Below are positions 6,196 to 23,855 of a DNA stretch of 23,855 nt, piece by piece (position 1 is the first letter of the stretch; each line of letters starts with the position of its first letter). Position numbers and translations under genes: made by a program. The stretch is from the NCBI GenBank assembly GCA_002898395.1, contig BEHE01000021.1:1-23855 (forward strand). The letters run 5' to 3'. Below the pieces are notes generated by a model, which was given only the letters and a program-made list of their open reading frames with translations, searched no databases and had not been told where the DNA came from. The DNA comes from Candidatus Calditenuaceae archaeon HR02 (GTDB taxonomy: Archaea; Thermoproteota; Nitrososphaeria_A; Caldarchaeales; Calditenuaceae).

Positions 6196-6332
6196 TACTA
6201 CCTTATTCAGAGAGTTGACGGGCGAAGAACCATCAGTTGCGAGAAGGCTCTCTAAGCGGGGCTGAGGAGGATCGGCTTAAAACATTCAATACCATCTGAC
6301 AACCACAGTGAAGGATTAAACACCCAAAGGAT

Positions 6333-14661: not shown

Positions 14662-17361
14662 GTGCTTAAATTTGCTCCGCATAGGGTGATTTACATGTGC
14701 GACGTGTCGAGGACTGGGGGTAGGGTCTCACACTACGTCTATGGAGCGTCTGTTGTAGTGGTCTTACTCCTCACCCTAGCATCTTTTCCATCCACTGCAA
14801 GAGCGCAGCCTCCACAGTGGAGCCTCCAAGTCTATTTTCTTCCACTGGGAGAACAGAGTCTCGGCGGAGAGGCCCGATGGCTCGACAGATACGATGACAA
14901 GTATTTTCCAGGCGAGACCGGCAACCTGACATTCCAGATAGTGAATACAGACTGTAGCTCGAGGGCTAGAGACCCCTATGTGCGTACTTTTACACAGAGG
15001 TGGGAGGATGAGCTGCGGCCCATCCTCGAGAGGCTTGATGCCATGAATAGGACTGGCTACATCTTAGGTTATGTAGTGGAGGATTCTAACGCTGTTGTCT
15101 ATGGTGATAGGAAGCTCGCGGACTGGGAGATTACTGTTGTCGGCCGATGCACTGGCCAGCCTATCCAGGTGGAGTCGGCCAAGATATGGTATGCCTGGCC
15201 CGGGTACGGGGAAGCCTTCAGCTCAACGATATCTCTGAAGAAGAAACTAGATGCCGTGGACCCCATCAAATACATCTTCGACGGCGAAGACAGAGGGGCG
15301 ACAATAGTATTCACCTTGCCGTTCAGCTTTCCCCCTGACATTCCACCACAGCTATTCGAGATGCAACCCATAATCACCCTCATGCTAAGATATCCCAGTG
15401 GATTCACCTACGAGTACAGGTACGGGCCCTTGGGCCCCGAAAGCCAGTGGTGGCTTTGGGGGCTGAAGGGTGCAGTATATGGGCCATTTAGGCTCAGCCC
15501 CTATAGAACCTTCAGCCTGAAAATAGCCGACCATGAGGGTGTAATCCCGCTTGGTGGAGCAAGACTTCTCCTTAAAGCACACATTTACACCTACTCTGTT
15601 AACCTAACGGCTGACAGTAGAGGTGTAGTACAGGTGAAGAGGCTTCCAGACTTTTACAGCTATGACGTGAGCATCACATACGCACCACCCCTCGTAGGTG
15701 AGGACATCACAGTCTACCGATCATCACATGATGCGATAGACCTAGCCTCGACGAGGATGATACACACAGCACTCTACACCCTCAGAGTCTATCCCATAGA
15801 CCTGGTCGGAAGACCACTCGAGAATGCTACAGTAGTATTGCAACTGGTTGAGGAGCTTCAGACAGGCAGGGTAGCCAGGGCCCTAAACCAGTCTAGCGGC
15901 GGTTACGCTAGCTTCTATCTTCTTCCGACTGGCAACTATTCAATCACAATCTTGTGGAGAGGAGTTGAGGTCTTCTCTACCCCGCGATATATAGGCTATC
16001 ACCCGACGCATGGATTTAGCGCACTCAGCTTCGAGGCGGAGACTATGGTTTCGGATCTGATTGCCTCGGCTGTGGACATGGCTGGAAATCCTGTTGGAGC
16101 AGTCTTTGATGTAAAGGGGCCAACCCGTGAGACGAGCTTCTCCAATCTTGCGAGGAGGGATGGCATACTGGTTATTCCCCAGCAACCCATCGCCACGTAT
16201 CTTGTATCAGCGATCAACGAGTCTGCCGCATTCAACTCGAGGGTAAGTGCAAGCTCAACTGTGATTCCAGGGGAGCCTGCAAAAATCAGTCTACCAATCT
16301 ACAGTGTTAGCATTAATATACTGTCAATGGACGGGAAACCAGTACCAGATGCGGAGATCACACTCCACACAATCCTGTTTAGTAGCGGACCATACGGCAG
16401 AATAACAATCCCCGGCGTTCCGAGGGGGACATACGGCCTAGCTGTACGCCATCAGAATGTCACTGTCTTCTCTGGGGAGGCGAGGATAGAGGGCATAACA
16501 GTCCTCGACATATATGTGCAGGTCTATGACGTAAATTTGACCCTCGTGGATGGTGACGGCTTACCCGTAGTGGTTGAATGGATCCTCAGCGGCCCCGGAG
16601 GCAGCTACAGTGGTACGGGAAGCAGGTTATACGCCCCTCTACTACCTGAAGCATCCCATAGGCTAACAGTCTATTTCCGCGAGGCGGGAAGGACGATACA
16701 GGCCCTTGACAGGGAGATACTACCATCGGAGTTCAGAGATAAGAACCTTACTCTACCAATAAGTACAGCAAAGTTAAGAGTCGTATGGGGTGATGGCGAA
16801 CTCTTCAATGGAACGATAGTACTTGACGGCGAAAGATACCCCGTCACCGGCGGAATACCCAGAATCGGAAAACTCGTCCACAGGACACTAAACATATCCC
16901 TGGAGACCGCGGGGGGCGTGGAGCTTCTCAGACGGGAGGTGCAGCACACAGGCAAAGAGATACAAATAGAAATCTCCCAGACATATATCACAGTAGTTGT
17001 GCAGGACGTGTTCCTGAGACCAGTTGAGGGAGCAAAAGCCCAAATCTACTCTCTCCGACGGCCGGGCCTATTGGTAGCGTCAGGAAATACTGGGAGCGAT
17101 GGAAAGGCATCATTCACTAAACTGCCTGAAGCCCTTGCACCATACCGGTTAGAGGTAAGATATGGAGGTGAAGTACTCGAGGCCTATGCGACGGCCGGTA
17201 TTATGAGATTCAGCCTAAACTCTCTCGTAGTCGGGGGAGTGGCAATCCCCGCCACCATGATCGTAGGGACTCTCGCGGTGGTGACGGCTCTGGCCCTGGT
17301 CGCCGCAATCATCGGTCGAGTTAGGGCGCGAATCGCTGAGAAGGGGGCTGAGGAGGAATAA
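14662..17361 (+). CDS. Large secreted, C-terminally membrane-anchored surface protein with carboxypeptidase-regulatory/prealbumin-like beta-sandwich repeats
   Basis: Signal peptide (VVVVLLLTLASFPSTARA-Q), about 7 repeats starting like 'V.D..G.P...A.V', many N-x-S/T sequons, C-terminal TM helix followed by a basic stretch. Start probably at or after ATG 14695. Confidence 0.8.
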   Translation: MLKFAPHRVIYMCDVSRTGGRVSHYVYGASVVVVLLLTLASFPSTARAQPPQWSLQVYFLPLGEQSLGGEARWLDRYDDKYFPGETGNLTFQIVNTDCSSRARDPYVRTFTQRWEDELRPILERLDAMNRTGYILGYVVEDSNAVVYGDRKLADWEITVVGRCTGQPIQVESAKIWYAWPGYGEAFSSTISLKKKLDAVDPIKYIFDGEDRGATIVFTLPFSFPPDIPPQLFEMQPIITLMLRYPSGFTYEYRYGPLGPESQWWLWGLKGAVYGPFRLSPYRTFSLKIADHEGVIPLGGARLLLKAHIYTYSVNLTADSRGVVQVKRLPDFYSYDVSITYAPPLVGEDITVYRSSHDAIDLASTRMIHTALYTLRVYPIDLVGRPLENATVVLQLVEELQTGRVARALNQSSGGYASFYLLPTGNYSITILWRGVEVFSTPRYIGYHPTHGFSALSFEAETMVSDLIASAVDMAGNPVGAVFDVKGPTRETSFSNLARRDGILVIPQQPIATYLVSAINESAAFNSRVSASSTVIPGEPAKISLPIYSVSINILSMDGKPVPDAEITLHTILFSSGPYGRITIPGVPRGTYGLAVRHQNVTVFSGEARIEGITVLDIYVQVYDVNLTLVDGDGLPVVVEWILSGPGGSYSGTGSRLYAPLLPEASHRLTVYFREAGRTIQALDREILPSEFRDKNLTLPISTAKLRVVWGDGELFNGTIVLDGERYPVTGGIPRIGKLVHRTLNISLETAGGVELLRREVQHTGKEIQIEISQTYITVVVQDVFLRPVEGAKAQIYSLRRPGLLVASGNTGSDGKASFTKLPEALAPYRLEVRYGGEVLEAYATAGIMRFSLNSLVVGGVAIPATMIVGTLAVVTALALVAAIIGRVRARIAEKGAEEE

Positions 17362-18734: not shown

Positions 18735-20648
18735 CTATCCAACCACGATTGTGTCGAGGTTCCTCGGAGTGTAGATAGAGGCTTCCAAGACCCTTCTGGC
18801 CGCCCCAGCAATCGAGTTCACCGCCTCCGGCTCACCATGGACAAATATGACATTCTGAGGCTTTGGAGAAACCCTCTTAAGATAGGAGAGTATCTGCTGC
18901 CTGCTAGAGTGTCCTGAGAAGCCGTCAACCTTCTCAACGGCTGCGGAGAGCTTAAACACCTCCTGCTTCCCCTCCTCATTTATTATGGTAACCTCCCTCA
19001 TCCCCTTCAGAATCTTCCTCCCCAGCGTCCCTTCAACCTGATAACTCACGAAAAGCAGAAGGTTCTTATCACTCTCCGACATGCTCCTTAGATAGGAGAG
19101 GACAGGGCCGCCCTCAAGCATGCCAGACGTGGCCATAACGATCATTGGCTCCCTGCTCTCAAGTATCTCCTCTCTGTGGTTCTGACTCTTCACGCTTACA
19201 AAATAGTCCGAGAAGAAGAGTGAGTCGCCACTCATGAATTCGTCCCTACTCTCAGTCGAGTAATATTCTGGGAAACAGCTATAGATGGATGTGGATTCTA
19301 TCAGTAGCCCGTCAAGTATGACTGGAACTTCAGGAATCATCTTAGACTCTATTAGGTTCTTAATCACCAGCATTATTTCCTGAGCCCTACCGACAGCCGG
19401 CACAGGGATCAAGACACTTCCACCCGAATTCACCGTGCGCGTAATATGTTCTGCAAATATACGTTCAGTCTCCTCCCGTGTGAACGGGATTGGCGTAGCC
19501 CCGTAGGTGCTCTCGATGATGAGAGTCTCCATCCTGGGGAATTTGGAAGTGGCGGGATCAAGCATACGCGTTCTCTCATACTTAAAGTCGCCGGTGTAGA
19601 CTATGTTGTGGAATCCCTCTCCTATGTGTAGGTGGGCTATGGCGGAGCCTAGAATGTGTCCCGCGTTGTAGAATGTTACTCTGATGTCGGGAGTGATATT
19701 GGTTACGACCCCGTATCGGAGTGGGACTACATGTCGTGCTGCAAGTCTGACCTCGTGCTCGCCATAGATGGGGTACTGTCCAGTCTTAGCCGCTAGGTTA
19801 AGATAGTCTAAGTGCTCCATAACCATTAGAGGCAGTGTGGGCTCGGTCATGTAGACTGGGCCTCGGTATCCATACTTGAATAGAAATGGCAGGGCGCCGT
19901 GATGGTCCATGTGTGAGTGTGTGATTATGACGGCGTCAAGCATATCGACCAAGTCGGGAAAGAAGTCCATCCTCGGCAGCATTTCCACCGGTCGGATAGC
20001 TCCAGCGCTTATACCGAAATCCATCAGGACACAGCTCTCCCGCGTCCTGACTAAGAGGGCTGAACGACCAACCTGCATCCCTCCCCCCAGAACAGTTATT
20101 GAGACTTCCCCCGGCTCAAAGAGCTGCTCCCTGAAAATCCTCTCCCCAATCTTTCGCAAAATTTCAATCCTCTCCTCCCCATCCCCATACAGATATTTCT
20201 TGACCTTCTCTAGTGTTTTGGAGGGGATGAGCGGTGTCCTTGAGACAGTGATTAGCCAGTTTATCTGCCTCTCTATGCCTGCCAGTTTATCAGGAGTCAG
20301 GAAGTTGAAGAGTTGCTGGTCATTGCTCTCAATCACAACCTCTCCCAGAATATTATCAAACGTGATATTTGCAGAATAGTTGTTAAGCGCCTCTCTCAAA
20401 AACTTCTTAGCCTCGTCCTGAGGCAACCTAATAGACTCGTCCGGCCGAATTACAACCCTTTTCTTAATCAAGTTCACAAGGTCTCTGGCAATAGAGTTCC
20501 TCTCAGCGAAGACGGAAGGCTCTGCGGTATAGATTGCGATCCTCGGCCCCTCGAAATCAATCCTTGTAACTACGCGCTCGCCCTTACCCAGCGTGACGAG
20601 ATAATTGAATATGTCTGCCCTCAGCTTGGATAGCATTCCATCTTCCAC
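18735..20648 (-). CDS. fttA: Beta-CASP ribonuclease aCPSF1 / transcription termination factor FttA
   Basis: N-terminal KH region (IDFEGPRIAIY), QVGRSA, THSHMDHHG, AGHILGS, YTGD, ESTYG, TSGMLEGGP, GFSGHS, VHGE. Alternative start at ATG 20636. Confidence 0.95.
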   Translation of the reverse strand: MEDGMLSKLRADIFNYLVTLGKGERVVTRIDFEGPRIAIYTAEPSVFAERNSIARDLVNLIKKRVVIRPDESIRLPQDEAKKFLREALNNYSANITFDNILGEVVIESNDQQLFNFLTPDKLAGIERQINWLITVSRTPLIPSKTLEKVKKYLYGDGEERIEILRKIGERIFREQLFEPGEVSITVLGGGMQVGRSALLVRTRESCVLMDFGISAGAIRPVEMLPRMDFFPDLVDMLDAVIITHSHMDHHGALPFLFKYGYRGPVYMTEPTLPLMVMEHLDYLNLAAKTGQYPIYGEHEVRLAARHVVPLRYGVVTNITPDIRVTFYNAGHILGSAIAHLHIGEGFHNIVYTGDFKYERTRMLDPATSKFPRMETLIIESTYGATPIPFTREETERIFAEHITRTVNSGGSVLIPVPAVGRAQEIMLVIKNLIESKMIPEVPVILDGLLIESTSIYSCFPEYYSTESRDEFMSGDSLFFSDYFVSVKSQNHREEILESREPMIVMATSGMLEGGPVLSYLRSMSESDKNLLLFVSYQVEGTLGRKILKGMREVTIINEEGKQEVFKLSAAVEKVDGFSGHSSRQQILSYLKRVSPKPQNVIFVHGEPEAVNSIAGAARRVLEASIYTPRNLDTIVVG

Positions 20649-20719
20649 CCTTACACAGTAAGACCTTTAACTCCCCAGGATATGCTCCGTGGGGTTCCTA
20701 AATCTGTTATCTGAGGCTC

Positions 20720-20727
20720 TATTTAAA
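20720..20727 (-). promoter_or_regulatory. TATA-like box upstream of aCPSF1
   Basis: TTTAAATA on the minus strand within the 106-bp gap. Confidence 0.35.
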
Positions 20728-20754
20728 GTGTCTCGAGACCGTATCCTCGCCCCA

Positions 20755-21543
20755 CTACTGCCCGGATACCCGCGGCTTTAGTGCCGCCTTCCAGAGGTGG
20801 ATGATGGCATAGGGTCTAGAAACTCCCTCGTCTTGCATAATCTTCTCAATCGCAGACGATACACGGGCCTCGTCCCTGTATTTGGCCACCAGCTCCCTAT
20901 ATAATGGCTCAGCTTCCTCGGTGCTTGTTGTGAGCTTAGCGATTGTCCGCGGTAGCGACCTGACATTGTCTATTTTCACTTGGAGATCGGATATTTGCTT
21001 CTTTATTTCCGCGATCTTGTTTCGATACTCTTCAACCTCGGCTTCCAGTGTTTTAAGCCGCTCGTTCTCGGCCCCGCTTAGAGTGCCTTCTCGCGATCTT
21101 AGAAATTCAACTTCTACGAGTCTGTCGAATAGCTGCTCTTCCAGCTCGCTCATCCTAGACTCCAGCTGGCCAAGGGCCTCGTTAAGAAGGTTCTCACAGG
21201 TCTGTGCCTCGCTTAGTAGAGCGTTCCTCTCGTCTGAGAGCTGGTTGAGCTTCTTCTTCACGGATCGGAGGTCAACCTCATCCCACTTCTTGAAAACCCT
21301 CTGGATTGAGCGGTCCATCTCCCGAATCTCCCTCAACTTTGCTTGAATGGCGTCAAAACTCTTCAGAGCCTCCTCATAGTTGTCTGTTGGCTGCTGGGAT
21401 GTTGGCTGAGCCTGCATTTCCTGTGGCTCTGGACCCTGCTTCTCAACCTCCTGAGCCTCCGCGAGCTCACTTACCTGCTGATCTTGCTGGACAGGCTCAG
21501 GTATTAGCCGCCTCCTAATGACTATCCGCTTCTTATCACTCAT
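20755..21543 (-). CDS. Hypothetical coiled-coil protein overlapping the JAMM gene
   Basis: ATG 21543 overlaps the JAMM 3' end by 8 bp. Basic N-terminal peptide, Q/E/P-rich linker, long heptad region, small C-terminal helical domain. Confidence 0.8.
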   Translation of the reverse strand: MSDKKRIVIRRRLIPEPVQQDQQVSELAEAQEVEKQGPEPQEMQAQPTSQQPTDNYEEALKSFDAIQAKLREIREMDRSIQRVFKKWDEVDLRSVKKKLNQLSDERNALLSEAQTCENLLNEALGQLESRMSELEEQLFDRLVEVEFLRSREGTLSGAENERLKTLEAEVEEYRNKIAEIKKQISDLQVKIDNVRSLPRTIAKLTTSTEEAEPLYRELVAKYRDEARVSSAIEKIMQDEGVSRPYAIIHLWKAALKPRVSGQ

Positions 21544-22147
21544 GTTTCTTAACACCCTCCGCCCTTAGGCCATGTAATAGAAAGTTACTGATAACTTTGA
21601 AGGGTTTAGGGACGGACATGTTATGTTCTTCATATTGGAAGATAGATGTCGTTGTGAGGCTGATGAGTGTTGATTCAAGCATCTTACGAGTTCCAGCCCC
21701 GAAGGTTACCGGAAGCTCAATTACCTGGTTATTGGCCCCAACTCTAAAGACCTTAAATAGCCCGTCTGAGATCTTTTTGGAGCCAACATATCTTGAAGGG
21801 TCAATTACTAGGGCAATGGCGTTCTGGTACAGTGCCTGATATGTTAGCTGGGTTCTAATATCTATGGGGGATAGGAATAGACCTAGTGATGGGTGGGAGT
21901 GGTACCATCCAACGATGAAGAGGGGGATTCTGTGATCGTGGAGGAATTCCGCAACCCTTGCCATCACCTCCTCACTGAGAACGACGAACCCGGGGGAGCC
22001 GGTCTGGCTTCCGGTAACAGCATCCCACACCTCGACAACCCCATTCTCCTCGGTTCCAAGCAGTAGGCCCGCCACCTCAATCTTGGGGTTGGAGAGGGCG
22101 TGGTTGATGATCTTTGCTAGTGCCGGCGGGAGCATCCTAACCCTCAT
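21536..22147 (-). CDS. rpn11: JAMM/MPN+ metalloisopeptidase, Rpn11-like
   Basis: EVAGLLLG and VGWYHSHPSLGLFLSPIDIRTQ (E...HxH-x7-S-x2-D), ALVIDP. Start placed at ATG 22147, after GGGGTGA and a TATA box (203 aa). Confidence 0.93.
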   Translation of the reverse strand: MRVRMLPPALAKIINHALSNPKIEVAGLLLGTEENGVVEVWDAVTGSQTGSPGFVVLSEEVMARVAEFLHDHRIPLFIVGWYHSHPSLGLFLSPIDIRTQLTYQALYQNAIALVIDPSRYVGSKKISDGLFKVFRVGANNQVIELPVTFGAGTRKMLESTLISLTTTSIFQYEEHNMSVPKPFKVISNFLLHGLRAEGVKKHE

Positions 22148-22175
22148 TTTCACCCCGTACCATGTAACTACCTGC

Positions 22176-22340
22176 CTATAAACCCCTAACCTACATACCT
22201 CCCGATTTCGCTCGTCCCCACTACCCAGCATCCTTTAAAAACAATTCAGACACCAACCCACACTGTACCATGTTTGCTGGGAGCGCGTATTTGTTACGTA
22301 TGTGTGCACACCACACTCACTACAGCTAATCTATTTATAG
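22176..22340. promoter_or_regulatory. Divergent promoter region between rpn11 and ubiquitin
   Basis: Identical TTTATAG boxes face outward: minus strand 22176-22182 (about 30 bp before rpn11 ATG) and plus strand 22334-22340 (about 36 bp before ubiquitin ATG). Confidence 0.55.
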
Positions 22341-22376
22341 CCCGTCCAATAAGCTGGATTAGGCGATGCGGGAATT

Positions 22377-22613
22377 ATGAAGATTAGAATAGTTCCTGCA
22401 GTGGGTGGCGGCCCACCAATAGAGCTAGATGTCCCGCCAAATGCGAGTATTGGTGCTGTGAAGATGAGGGTTTGCGCAATTAAGAAGTTGAGACCGGAGG
22501 ATGCGAGGCTCACTTTTAAAGGAAGGGCATTGAGCGACTCCGAGACCATCTCGTCCGCTGGAGTAACTGAGGGAGATAAGCTGGTTTTAATTACTAGGAC
22601 GGTTGGTGGTTAG
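22377..22613 (+). CDS. Eukaryote-type ubiquitin homologue (78 aa), ending in Gly-Gly
   Basis: Beta-grasp pattern aligns to ubiquitin with a +2 offset (RLTFKGRALSDSETI versus RLIFAGKQLEDGRTL). Ends LVLITRTVGG-stop and is followed by E2 and E1. Confidence 0.95.
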   Translation: MKIRIVPAVGGGPPIELDVPPNASIGAVKMRVCAIKKLRPEDARLTFKGRALSDSETISSAGVTEGDKLVLITRTVGG

Positions 22614-22615
22614 TT

Positions 22616-23119
22616 TTGGAGGCGTCGGAGGTTGGGTATCTGCCTGAGAGCAGGTGGGTCAGGCGCCTGGCCCAAGAATACCAGCTCATCAGGAACTATG
22701 AGCCCAACTTCGACGCTGTAGGGGGCGACCTAACACATTATAAGGGAATAATTATCGGCTCTGGAGCCTATGATGGTGGGGTATTCGTGGTGGAGATCAT
22801 TCTCCCACGCTCATTCCCCTTTGTTCCCCCCGAGGTTATCTGGCACACCAGGATATGGCATCCAAACTTCACCGATGAAGAGCCGGCCAGAATCTGTGAA
22901 TCAATACTGAACAAGGATTGGTATCCCAACATGCATATAGTCTCGGTTATTGAGGCTCTGAAAAACCTCCTCGCCAACCCAAACCCGGATGACCCGCTCA
23001 ATGTATGGGCGGCCCAAGAGTTGAAACTATATCCGGAACGTTTTATCGCCCGTGTTAGGGAGTATATCAGGCTCTACGCAACCCAGGAGCGGTCTCTTGA
23101 GAAGCTTGCCGGGATATGA
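22616..23119 (+). CDS. E2 ubiquitin-conjugating enzyme (UBC fold)
   Basis: RRLAQE, YDGGVF, FPFVPP, IWHPNF, single Cys94 in RICESIL, DWYP, LLANPNPDDPLN. TTG start. Confidence 0.95.
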   Translation: MEASEVGYLPESRWVRRLAQEYQLIRNYEPNFDAVGGDLTHYKGIIIGSGAYDGGVFVVEIILPRSFPFVPPEVIWHTRIWHPNFTDEEPARICESILNKDWYPNMHIVSVIEALKNLLANPNPDDPLNVWAAQELKLYPERFIARVREYIRLYATQERSLEKLAGI

Positions 23120-23855
23120 TAGATATGGAGAGGTACGACCGGCAGCTCCGCGTAGAGGGATGGGACCAGAACATTCTCCTATCCTCGACCGTATTTATTG
23201 CCGGTGTCGGCGCAATAGGCGGTGAAGTGGCGAAAAACCTCGCGATGATGGGTGTAGGCAAGCTAATACTCGCGGACTATGACTATGTTGAGCTAAGCAA
23301 TCTTAGCCGGCAGCTCCTATTCCGGGACCATGATATAGGCAAGGGGAAGGCTATTGTCGCAGCCGAGAGGCTACGCGAGATCAACCCTCACGTAGCAGTC
23401 GAGGCCTACGGACAAGACATCAGAGAGCTTGGAGAGGGGGTCCTCGGAGGGGTAGACGTAATCTTCTCATGCCTGGATAACTGGGCATCGAGGAGATGGC
23501 TGAACTCTGTTGCTGTCAGCCTTGATAAACCCCTGGTAGACGGCGCCATGAACGGGTTTTACGGAAACGTGCAGGTGGTTTTCCCAAGGAAGACGGCATG
23601 CCTCGAGTGTCAGAGCATCAACCTCATACCTAGGGAGGAGAAGCTGGCAGAATGCACGCTTAAGAGGAGGAAGCCTGAGCACCTAGTCAACGATCTAAAG
23701 GAGCATGGAATCACGGTAGGGCTGGAGGAGGCTGAGAAGCTCTTCCAACTCAATATAAAGACGATCTACGACATAAAATACACGAGGCTAGACATGATAG
23801 CCGAGCTGGCTGGTGACAAGACATTAAGACTGATAGAGGAGCTGCGCTCGAGGCT
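23116..23855 (+). CDS. E1 ubiquitin-activating enzyme (ThiF/UBA family), truncated by the window edge; absent from the ORF track
   Basis: Manual translation from ATG 23116 (ATGA overlap with the E2 stop; alternative start 23125): MIDMERYDRQLRVEGWDQ...AGVGAIGGEVAKNL...DYDYVELSNLSRQLLF...GKGKA...CLDNWASR...TACLEC...AECTLKRRKPEH. Frame is open to 23855. Confidence 0.95.
   Translation, partial: MIDMERYDRQLRVEGWDQNILLSSTVFIAGVGAIGGEVAKNLAMMGVGKLILADYDYVELSNLSRQLLFRDHDIGKGKAIVAAERLREINPHVAVEAYGQDIRELGEGVLGGVDVIFSCLDNWASRRWLNSVAVSLDKPLVDGAMNGFYGNVQVVFPRKTACLECQSINLIPREEKLAECTLKRRKPEHLVNDLKEHGITVGLEEAEKLFQLNIKTIYDIKYTRLDMIAELAGDKTLRLIEELRSR

Follow-up and report, generated by a model that had tools for sequence, protein, structure and literature searches.

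CC, an undescribed helical protein family of the Caldarchaeales usually encoded alongside the deubiquitinase gene rpn11

Introduction

In Candidatus Calditenuaceae archaeon HR02 (GCA_002898395.1; genome G000 in what follows), the gene of an Rpn11-like deubiquitinase is directly followed by the gene of a helical protein of 262 amino acids (aa; protein P0001), which is named CC here. The stretch of DNA analysed, positions 1-23,855 of contig BEHE01000021.1, is referred to as the window, and the CC gene occupies 20755..21543 of its minus strand, stop codon included. As reported below, CC represents an undescribed, clade-restricted protein family with a generic fold and a specific genomic link to a well-studied system, and its place as a conserved, unannotated companion of rpn11 is supported by gene order across the class to which HR02 belongs. 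The Caldiarchaeum-type set of ubiquitin, E1, E2, RING protein and Rpn11 is the reference minimal model for the origin of eukaryotic ubiquitin signalling, and CC is the most obvious candidate for a link from this minimal system to substrates, receptors or downstream machines. Tentatively, CC is read here as an accessory or adaptor protein, non-enzymatic and clade-specific, that belongs to the Rpn11 arm of the ubiquitin system in Caldarchaeales; if it were unrelated to the ubiquitin system, it would still constitute a new clade-specific family together with a small mobile three-helix C-terminal module.

No description of the CC family was found in the available body text, as distinct from figures and supplements, of the articles on this ubiquitin system. 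The word 'coiled' is absent from the accessible parts of PMC3082918 and PMC6043591, and its single use in those of PMC5654768 refers to Rad50. According to the legend of Fig. 3 in PMC3082918, as far as that article was accessible, unlabelled coding sequences are hypothetical proteins, so the CC open reading frame (ORF) may be drawn there without comment; it may also appear in Supplementary Fig. 1 of PMC5654768.

The CC gene and its phyletic range

The CC frame comprises 262 codons with no internal stop. As given in the preliminary description, its ATG (21543-21541) overlaps the end of rpn11 by 8 bp, and the string common to this ATG and the rpn11 stop codon TGA (21538-21536), read directly from the sequence, is ATGAGTGA (8 nt, 21536..21543, minus strand). 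A second in-frame start, GTG at 21555, is present four codons upstream; the ATG is favoured because the homologues start right at the motif M[SP]..KK[IV][IV][IL][KR]. A candidate Shine-Dalgarno site, the string GGAGGGTG (21553..21560, minus strand), was read by eye within the rpn11 coding sequence, 9 nt ahead of the CC start codon as seen on the mRNA strand; it resembles the archaeal consensus. A promoter and terminator scan of 20500-22700, of the bacterial type and unsuited to archaea, found nothing.

CC is not a chance ORF, because full-length, single-copy, open homologues were detected by six-frame whole-genome searches in 71 of the 76 genomes of the class. They are found in 15/15 genera and in 43/43 high-quality genomes, and the five misses are genomes that are 59-84% complete. 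A word-indexed search (1712 candidates) returned nine close homologues of 254-266 aa, and a phmmer search with CC as the query, run exhaustively over 1.84 billion representatives, returned 16 proteins at E<=0.001, 14 of which (197-274 aa) cover most of CC, the other two being short and partial. The source labels on the homologues are Aigarchaeota, Caldarchaeales or Nitrososphaerota. When a 35-member CC profile was run against 401 genomes sampled across the phylum, a full-length match was obtained in 60/60 class genomes (G000 included) and in 0/341 of the others, in 16 of which short partial matches only were seen. Judged from these searches, CC is found only in the Aigarchaeota/Caldarchaeales group.

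Within the class, Rpn11 was detected in 74/76 genomes and E2 in 75/76, and in the phylum sample the E2 family UQ_con was above cut-off in 60/60 class genomes compared with 6/341 others. The range of CC therefore matches the clade of the eukaryote-like ubiquitin system, which makes CC clade-specific. Co-occurrence with ubiquitin loci, which had been proposed as a check on its function, holds at the level of the clade; within the class it does not discriminate, both being nearly universal.

Linkage of CC to rpn11 across the class

Adjacency was assessed by eye from the search coordinates in the 71 genomes with CC. CC directly follows rpn11 on the same strand in 46 of them, representing 11 of the 15 genera, namely in all CC-bearing genomes of genera g1, g2, g4-g10 and g14 and in five of the six of g3; one genome with both genes at contig ends (G027) was left out of the adjacency classes. 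An overlap of 4-8 nt between the CC start and the rpn11 stop is seen in the window and at every one of the 16 f1 family loci. At 13 rpn11-CC loci of g5, g9 and g14, which belong to other families, the two genes are separated by 15-50 nt in 12 and overlap by 1 nt in one. In g3, the rpn11-CC pair is split from the main E2, by at least 18 kb in the three genomes that have both on one contig and by location on another contig in two, and there is no ubiquitin, E2 or E1 gene nearby, yet a 4-nt overlap is retained. The gene downstream of CC varies by genus (aCPSF1, a trio of HMG-CoA synthase, thiolase and DUF35, LysRS or an AsnC regulator); apart from rpn11, only the trio, a housekeeping set, recurs beside CC. 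One genome that is 74% complete (G072) has CC and gave no Rpn11 match.

Architecture and predicted structure of CC

The AlphaFold2 model of CC, based on a 35-sequence alignment, has a pLDDT of 84.2 and a pTM of 0.70, and contains helices at residues 52-86, 92-149 and 157-195, followed by short helices at 197-205, 211-222, 225-239 and 243-255. The layout read earlier from the sequence, a basic peptide, a disordered linker, a helical region and a tail of three-helix size, is reproduced by this model.

The N-terminal element is a basic/hydrophobic, strand-like motif, KKRIVIRRR (residues 4-12; 21508..21534, minus strand), which in the alignments takes the form M[SP](0-3 residues)[KR][KR][IV][IV][IL][KR] directly after the CC start codon in every genus, with I7 nearly invariant. 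Among 31476 candidate starts scanned in the HR02 genome, the motif stands at a true N-terminus in CC only; a targeting motif shared among proteins was thereby rejected, as the remaining pattern matches are an internal strand of the KH domain in the neighbouring aCPSF1. It is followed by an acidic linker rich in Q, E and P (residues 13-51; 21391..21507, minus strand), which is variable in length, gapped in the alignment and predicted to be disordered; residues 1-50 have a pLDDT of 41-51, and this region of low confidence looks disordered in the model. The helical body consists of three long helices (residues 52-195; 20959..21390, minus strand) in the model, and carries, in the alignments, the invariant residues E135 and E167 and the nearly invariant residues R106, L138 and R174; Q81 is invariant in an 18-sequence alignment only. 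An LP..I...TT connector joins the body to the tail, a C-terminal three-helix knob containing IEKIMQDEGVSRPYAIIHLWK (residues 211-255; 20779..20913, minus strand), in which Y245 and A246 are invariant. Conservation is highest in the N-terminal motif and in the tail. CC is a real folded protein with conserved surface-type polar residues and conserved termini.

The term 'coiled coil', applied to CC in the preliminary description, is only loosely right: the long helices are there, and they are modelled as an intramolecular three-helix bundle. These helices might nevertheless form an intermolecular coil, as AlphaFold2 can fold true dimeric coils as intramolecular bundles. When folded alone from 28 aligned rows, the tail is predicted, as had been proposed, to be a three-helix bundle, with helices at 16-27, 30-44 and 48-60 in tail numbering and a pLDDT of about 90 over 16-60.

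Searches with CC did not connect it to a known family. No curated match over cut-off was obtained for the whole protein in Pfam, NCBIfam, PADLOC or PHROGs, coiled-coil noise only being seen among the matches listed (in Pfam, the best 25 of 53 at E<=1), and the best score in a curated library, 25.3 bits for Phage_scaffold, is below its cut-off of 35. SMC, Rad50 and SbcC match CC through their coiled-coil arms only and not through their ABC-type ATPase heads, at 13-24 bits compared with cut-offs of 300-1000, and the PADLOC models LmuB and JetC likewise match through coiled-coil arms only, under their cut-offs; these candidates were rejected, and the label 'SbcCD ATPase subunit' carried by homologues P0002 and P0010 is a coiled-coil artefact. 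No Pfam match to an MPN/JAB domain was found in CC. Against PDB sequences, the CC family profile found only designed coils, prefoldin and tetherin, all at E>=0.002, and Foldseek searches of the PDB with the whole model and with the tail gave no match at E<=0.001. In the wide structural search with VIA, the whole model matched unrelated long-helix chains, among them IpaB, HP0958, PspA, a CdvA filament, ESCRT-III chains and prefoldin, with Z values of 9-10.8; the tool itself gives such values as background for models with long helices. In the ESM Atlas, the best score for the whole protein was 0.76, offering no lead, and the tail had no usable match.

A possible role of CC in the Rpn11 arm

The accessory or adaptor role is favoured because the conserved translational or operonic coupling to Rpn11 is the strongest signal, and because such coupling usually means that both products are needed together. 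CC would be made from the same mRNA as Rpn11, through translational coupling in family f1, and would form an elongated three-helix stalk bearing a C-terminal knob and, on an acidic tether of about 40 residues, a basic strand-forming peptide. The stalk or the knob may dock on Rpn11 itself or on its complex with ubiquitin and a substrate, and the strand tethered at the N-terminus may pair with the edge of a beta-sheet in a second partner; CC would thereby position or regulate Rpn11, as unrelated scaffolds do for eukaryotic JAMM enzymes. The predicted anatomy fits an adaptor in which a rigid spacer carries two distinct binding elements. Eukaryotic JAMM deubiquitinases are positioned by non-catalytic partners, as in the pairs Rpn8-Rpn11, CSN6-CSN5, Abraxas/KIAA0157-BRCC36 and STAM-AMSH. 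If the favoured role is correct, CC would resemble these partners, which assemble through helical bundles, in being non-enzymatic, largely helical and made together with a JAMM deubiquitinase, whereas it differs from them in having no MPN domain and no sequence or specific fold similarity, and in being confined to one archaeal class. Rpn8 is described as the non-catalytic partner of Rpn11 in the part of PMC6043591 that was accessible.

Several observations weigh against this assignment. In four genera of family f4, CC is not adjacent to rpn11, which remains with the ubiquitin, E2 and E1 genes: the two genes are divergent and 9.5-17 kb apart on one contig in nine genomes (g11, g12 and g15) and lie on different contigs in 14 (g12, g13 and g15), and in two g13 genomes at least 6 kb on either side of CC holds no ubiquitin-system gene. 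The operon is therefore not required. The co-occurrence within the class carries little information, since any clade-specific gene would look alike. Outside the class, six Thermoproteota genomes (G136, G398, G308, G288, G283 and G108; loci L065-L070) carry co-directional ubiquitin-E2-E1 clusters, with a JAB gene of 212-534 aa directly upstream in five and an upstream ORF with no JAB match in the sixth (L067), and neither a CC homologue nor a helix-rich neighbour was found beside any of the six. According to the text of PMC5654768 and PMC6043591 that was available, the Rpn11 of C. subterraneum cleaves pro-ubiquitin and conjugates in vitro on its own, and no similarity of CC to any known deubiquitinase partner was found. 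A complex prediction for Rpn11 and CC (27-row and 35-row alignments), made with no controls, gave scores of 0.25 and 0.12 compared with a mark of 0.32, an outcome that counts neither for nor against the assignment.

It is possible, if rather doubtful, that CC is instead a clade-specific structural or housekeeping helical protein, such as a cytoskeletal, membrane-associated or chaperone-like stalk, and that its adjacency to rpn11 is inherited gene order. The occurrence of CC, universal and single-copy in the class, is like that of a core gene, and its retention as an unlinked gene in four genera, the ubiquitin-E2-E1 systems outside the class that lack it and the background level of its matches to generic long-helix proteins all agree with such a role. 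Against it, four genera share the start/stop overlap of 4-8 nt, the rpn11-CC pair of g3 persists after its split from the ubiquitin, E2 and E1 genes, and no other neighbour of CC is conserved.

In the preliminary description, CC was put forward as a candidate missing component of the archaeal ubiquitin system; that it supplies the minimal system with a missing non-enzymatic part, as an adaptor, is unlikely. In such a system, the helical body would hold Rpn11, and the tethered N-terminal strand and the knob would bring to it ubiquitinated clients or an unfoldase, the proteasome or ESCRT-III. If true, lid-type or ESCRT-0-type scaffolds would have in CC a functional forerunner or analogue with an unrelated fold.

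The C-terminal tail and its likeness to ubiquitin-binding domains

A direct role as a ubiquitin receptor through a UBA-like tail, also raised at the outset, is improbable for CC. The case for it begins with the predicted three-helix bundle, a compact unit of UBA size (about 40-50 residues) that the tail model fits, and with a motif, helix-G[VI][SP].E.A-helix, that resembles the NAC and HYPK UBA pattern. This likeness is real in motif and in register, since hhalign and hmmsearch place the CC motif in the helix 1-loop-helix 2 register of the NAC UBA (1tr8). It is nevertheless no evidence of a UBA domain: when profiles of the tail were compared with the UBA ends of 13 NAC proteins encoded within the class, hhalign gave alignments of only 13 columns, at a probability of 0.4% (E 0.17), or of 19 columns, at 3% (E 0.015). 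Among 28 CC tails, none matched the Pfam models of UBA, CUE, HYPK or NAC at E<=10, in a scan whose filters may drop matches above about E 0.1. In a search of all PDB sequences with the tail profile, the top match was a helix-loop-helix of malic enzyme (E 0.037), and the archaeal NAC 1tr8 was eighth of 12 matches (E 0.67); as malic enzyme matches the motif better than NAC, the motif is to be read as a common helix-capping pattern. In the model, moreover, the last two helices of the tail (2 and 3) flank the UBA-like motif, which a UBA domain carries on its first two, and CC ends 7-10 residues past helix 3, where the third UBA helix would be.

In the fold comparisons of the tail, the VIA Z values are all below the level that the tool advises trusting. 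The best match is the AROD domain of Rpa1 from P. abyssi (8aa9 and 8aaj), with VIA Z values of 6.4-6.6 and a root-mean-square deviation (r.m.s.d.) of 2.0 over 49 residues; Foldseek gave an r.m.s.d. of 1.2 over 46 residues with an E-value of 3.5. AROD is, according to the titles of the entries, a protein-protein interaction module, and it differs from the CC tail in its context, a DNA-binding protein, and in sequence, the identity being 15-17%. The UBA domain 1wj7, with a Z of 4.4, is outranked by ANTAR (Z 5.2-5.6) as well, and 6xqi, a Vpr-hHR23A entry in which the identity of the matched chain was left unchecked, has a Z of 4.8; the CUE rows of Foldseek have probabilities of 0.06-0.08. These two entries among the fold matches favour a UBA-like tail, and the higher rank of AROD and ANTAR argues against it. 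Taken as a claim for a ubiquitin receptor, the UBA-like tail is unsupported.

A tail-like module was also found by profile search at the C-terminus of two YbjQ_1 (PF01906) proteins and one small membrane protein outside the class (L059:3244-3792, L060:3916-4482 and L058:3927-4436, in genomes G371 and G406). UQ_con was not found in these two genomes, which are 99% complete and belong to other families, and the positive controls G000 and G012 were matched. The presence of the module on YbjQ_1 and membrane proteins where E2 was not found suggests that the tail is a small interaction module, mobile and with no tie to ubiquitin systems, and is a further argument against a receptor. On the strength of these sequence matches, the tail of about 50 aa appears as an undescribed mobile C-terminal domain. 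No fusion of the tail with Rpn11 was present among the 59 matches (177-298 aa) that the tail profile gave against longer proteins, of which the 8000 candidates sharing most words were scored.

CC as a substrate or a CdvA-like protein

It is equally improbable that the ubiquitin cascade has in CC a dedicated substrate or a target that it regulates, the disordered N-terminal region being the site of modification or initiation. The position in the operon would fit, and a long, disordered, lysine-poor linker stands beside a lysine-rich N-terminal motif; in the text of PMC5654768 that was accessible, the coiled-coil protein Rad50 is a good artificial substrate in vitro. The strong conservation of both termini of CC, on the other hand, suits a binding role at least as well.

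The last alternative, that CC is a CdvA-like or ESCRT-related helical hairpin replacing the CdvA missing from this clade, is highly improbable. CdvB and CdvC are present and CdvA is absent in C. subterraneum, according to the part of PMC3082918 available. In agreement with a vacancy, the CdvA family PF18822 was over cut-off in 0/76 class genomes, the positive control S. acidocaldarius being over it, and a CdvB/Snf7 gene is present in the HR02 genome. CC resembles CdvA (PF18822; 9s9g) in its length of about 260 aa, its predicted long helical hairpin and its flexible parts with short, putatively binding motifs, and the S. islandicus CdvA filament 9s9g_A is among its fold matches (Z 10.2, r.m.s.d. 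3.3, 130 aligned), as are ESCRT-III and PspA chains (Z 9-10.3). These values are, however, at the background for long helical models, and the filament ties with many unrelated long-helix chains. PF18822 had no match at the CC locus of the HR02 genome at E<=0.1, no PRC-barrel was found in CC, the N-terminus of which is predicted to be disordered and has no Pfam match, Snf7 and PspA models are absent from the best 25 of 53 Pfam matches of CC at E<=1, CdvA was not listed in the search of PDB sequences with the CC family profile, and hhalign of CC with the CdvB of its own genome gave a probability of 0.4%.

The weak CdvA signal in these genomes belongs to another family, which further weakens the CdvA-like reading of CC. 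This family, with a Zn-ribbon and a long coiled coil (about 260-290 aa), is present in 76/76 class genomes and gives weak PF18822 matches; its members include C1:23231-23950 in the HR02 genome, L088:1031-1831 and L089:879-1658. Its C-terminal motif is presumably SHOCT-like. The hhalign comparison with CC gave a probability of 0.3%. By its sequence, the Zn-ribbon family appears to be a better CdvA-like candidate than CC and a possible partner of CdvB and CdvC. Similar Zn-ribbon/CdvA-like families of Thermoproteales are described in the accessible part of PMC10936438.

Neighbouring genes of the ubiquitin locus

The neighbours named in the preliminary description, a JAB/MPN protein, ubiquitin, a UQ_con E2 and a ThiF E1, were all recovered by Pfam. 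The rpn11-like gene for a JAB/MPN+ deubiquitinase is at 21536..22147 on the minus strand (PF01398, E 4.6e-16); its probable start, MRVRML, is backed by orthologues, and the ORF is open up to 22231. Divergent from it, on the plus strand, are the genes for ubiquitin (22377..22613; PF00240, E 4.7e-12), E2 (22616..23119; PF00179, E 4e-27) and E1 (23116..23853; PF00899, E 4.6e-55), the last of which is truncated by the end of the window. Downstream of CC, on the same strand, the Pfam scan of the window places aCPSF1/FttA.

The ubiquitin gene of this genus encodes a product that ends directly in GG, with no propeptide, which implies that precursor processing by Rpn11 is not needed in the HR02 genome. 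At the loci of g5, g9 and g14, the ubiquitin ORFs are of 87-98 aa and have C-terminal extensions beyond GG, and the ubiquitin of C. subterraneum has a nine-residue propeptide, as stated in the available text of PMC5654768.

In other genera, the RING gene srfp (PF13639, E 3.2e-10) is found downstream of E1, a position that lies beyond the window end in HR02. It is followed by a conserved ORF of about 103-116 aa, alike in size and position across loci (L042:9730-10304, with equivalents in L035, L036 and L043), which gave no Pfam match in the one locus scanned and may be another unannotated member of the operon. A second, divergent pair of an E2-like and a JAB gene exists in g3 in addition to the main system (G022:C2:193699-194485, with equivalents in G024, G025, G026 and G028). 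Among the six ubiquitin operons outside the class, three have JAB forms of 525-534 aa; the one scanned showed weak Ig-like matches (E about 0.005, under Pfam cut-offs), and the 534-aa JAB protein of one operon had no similarity to CC when the two were compared. At L065 and L069, which were scanned with Pfam, Zn-ribbon/B-box proteins flank the ubiquitin cluster in place of the RING protein srfp. Elsewhere in the window, an 899-aa ORF at 14662-17361 has a hydrophobic segment at the N-terminus and a transmembrane anchor at the C-terminus, and its product is probably a large surface protein.

Fragments of the CC gene in a repeat family

Pieces of the CC gene (21047-21273 and 21416-21486 of the window) recur at nine other, mostly intergenic, places in the HR02 genome as nucleotide matches of 35-227 bp that are 82-93% identical. 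One copy is in the window at 6239-6284, and the others are at C9:23472-23680, C13:17291-17392, C20:114-184, C12:24148-24208, C3:108347-108413, C5:65820-65886, C9:47529-47578 and C6:7518-7552. The flanks of the copies show homology among themselves (77-94% over about 40-280 bp) and none to the CC locus, and the copies are therefore read as a mosaic non-coding repeat family with a captured CC fragment. No Rfam family was found in the window, the window copy included, and the only flanking ORF to overlap the repeat matches no Pfam family. The fragments may go back to a mobile element that captured its flanks, or to an antisense regulator. A seed of 1.3 kb around one copy matched 36 further places on about 20 contigs, and a profile search found a similar CC fragment in another genome, at G038:C3:75948-76118.

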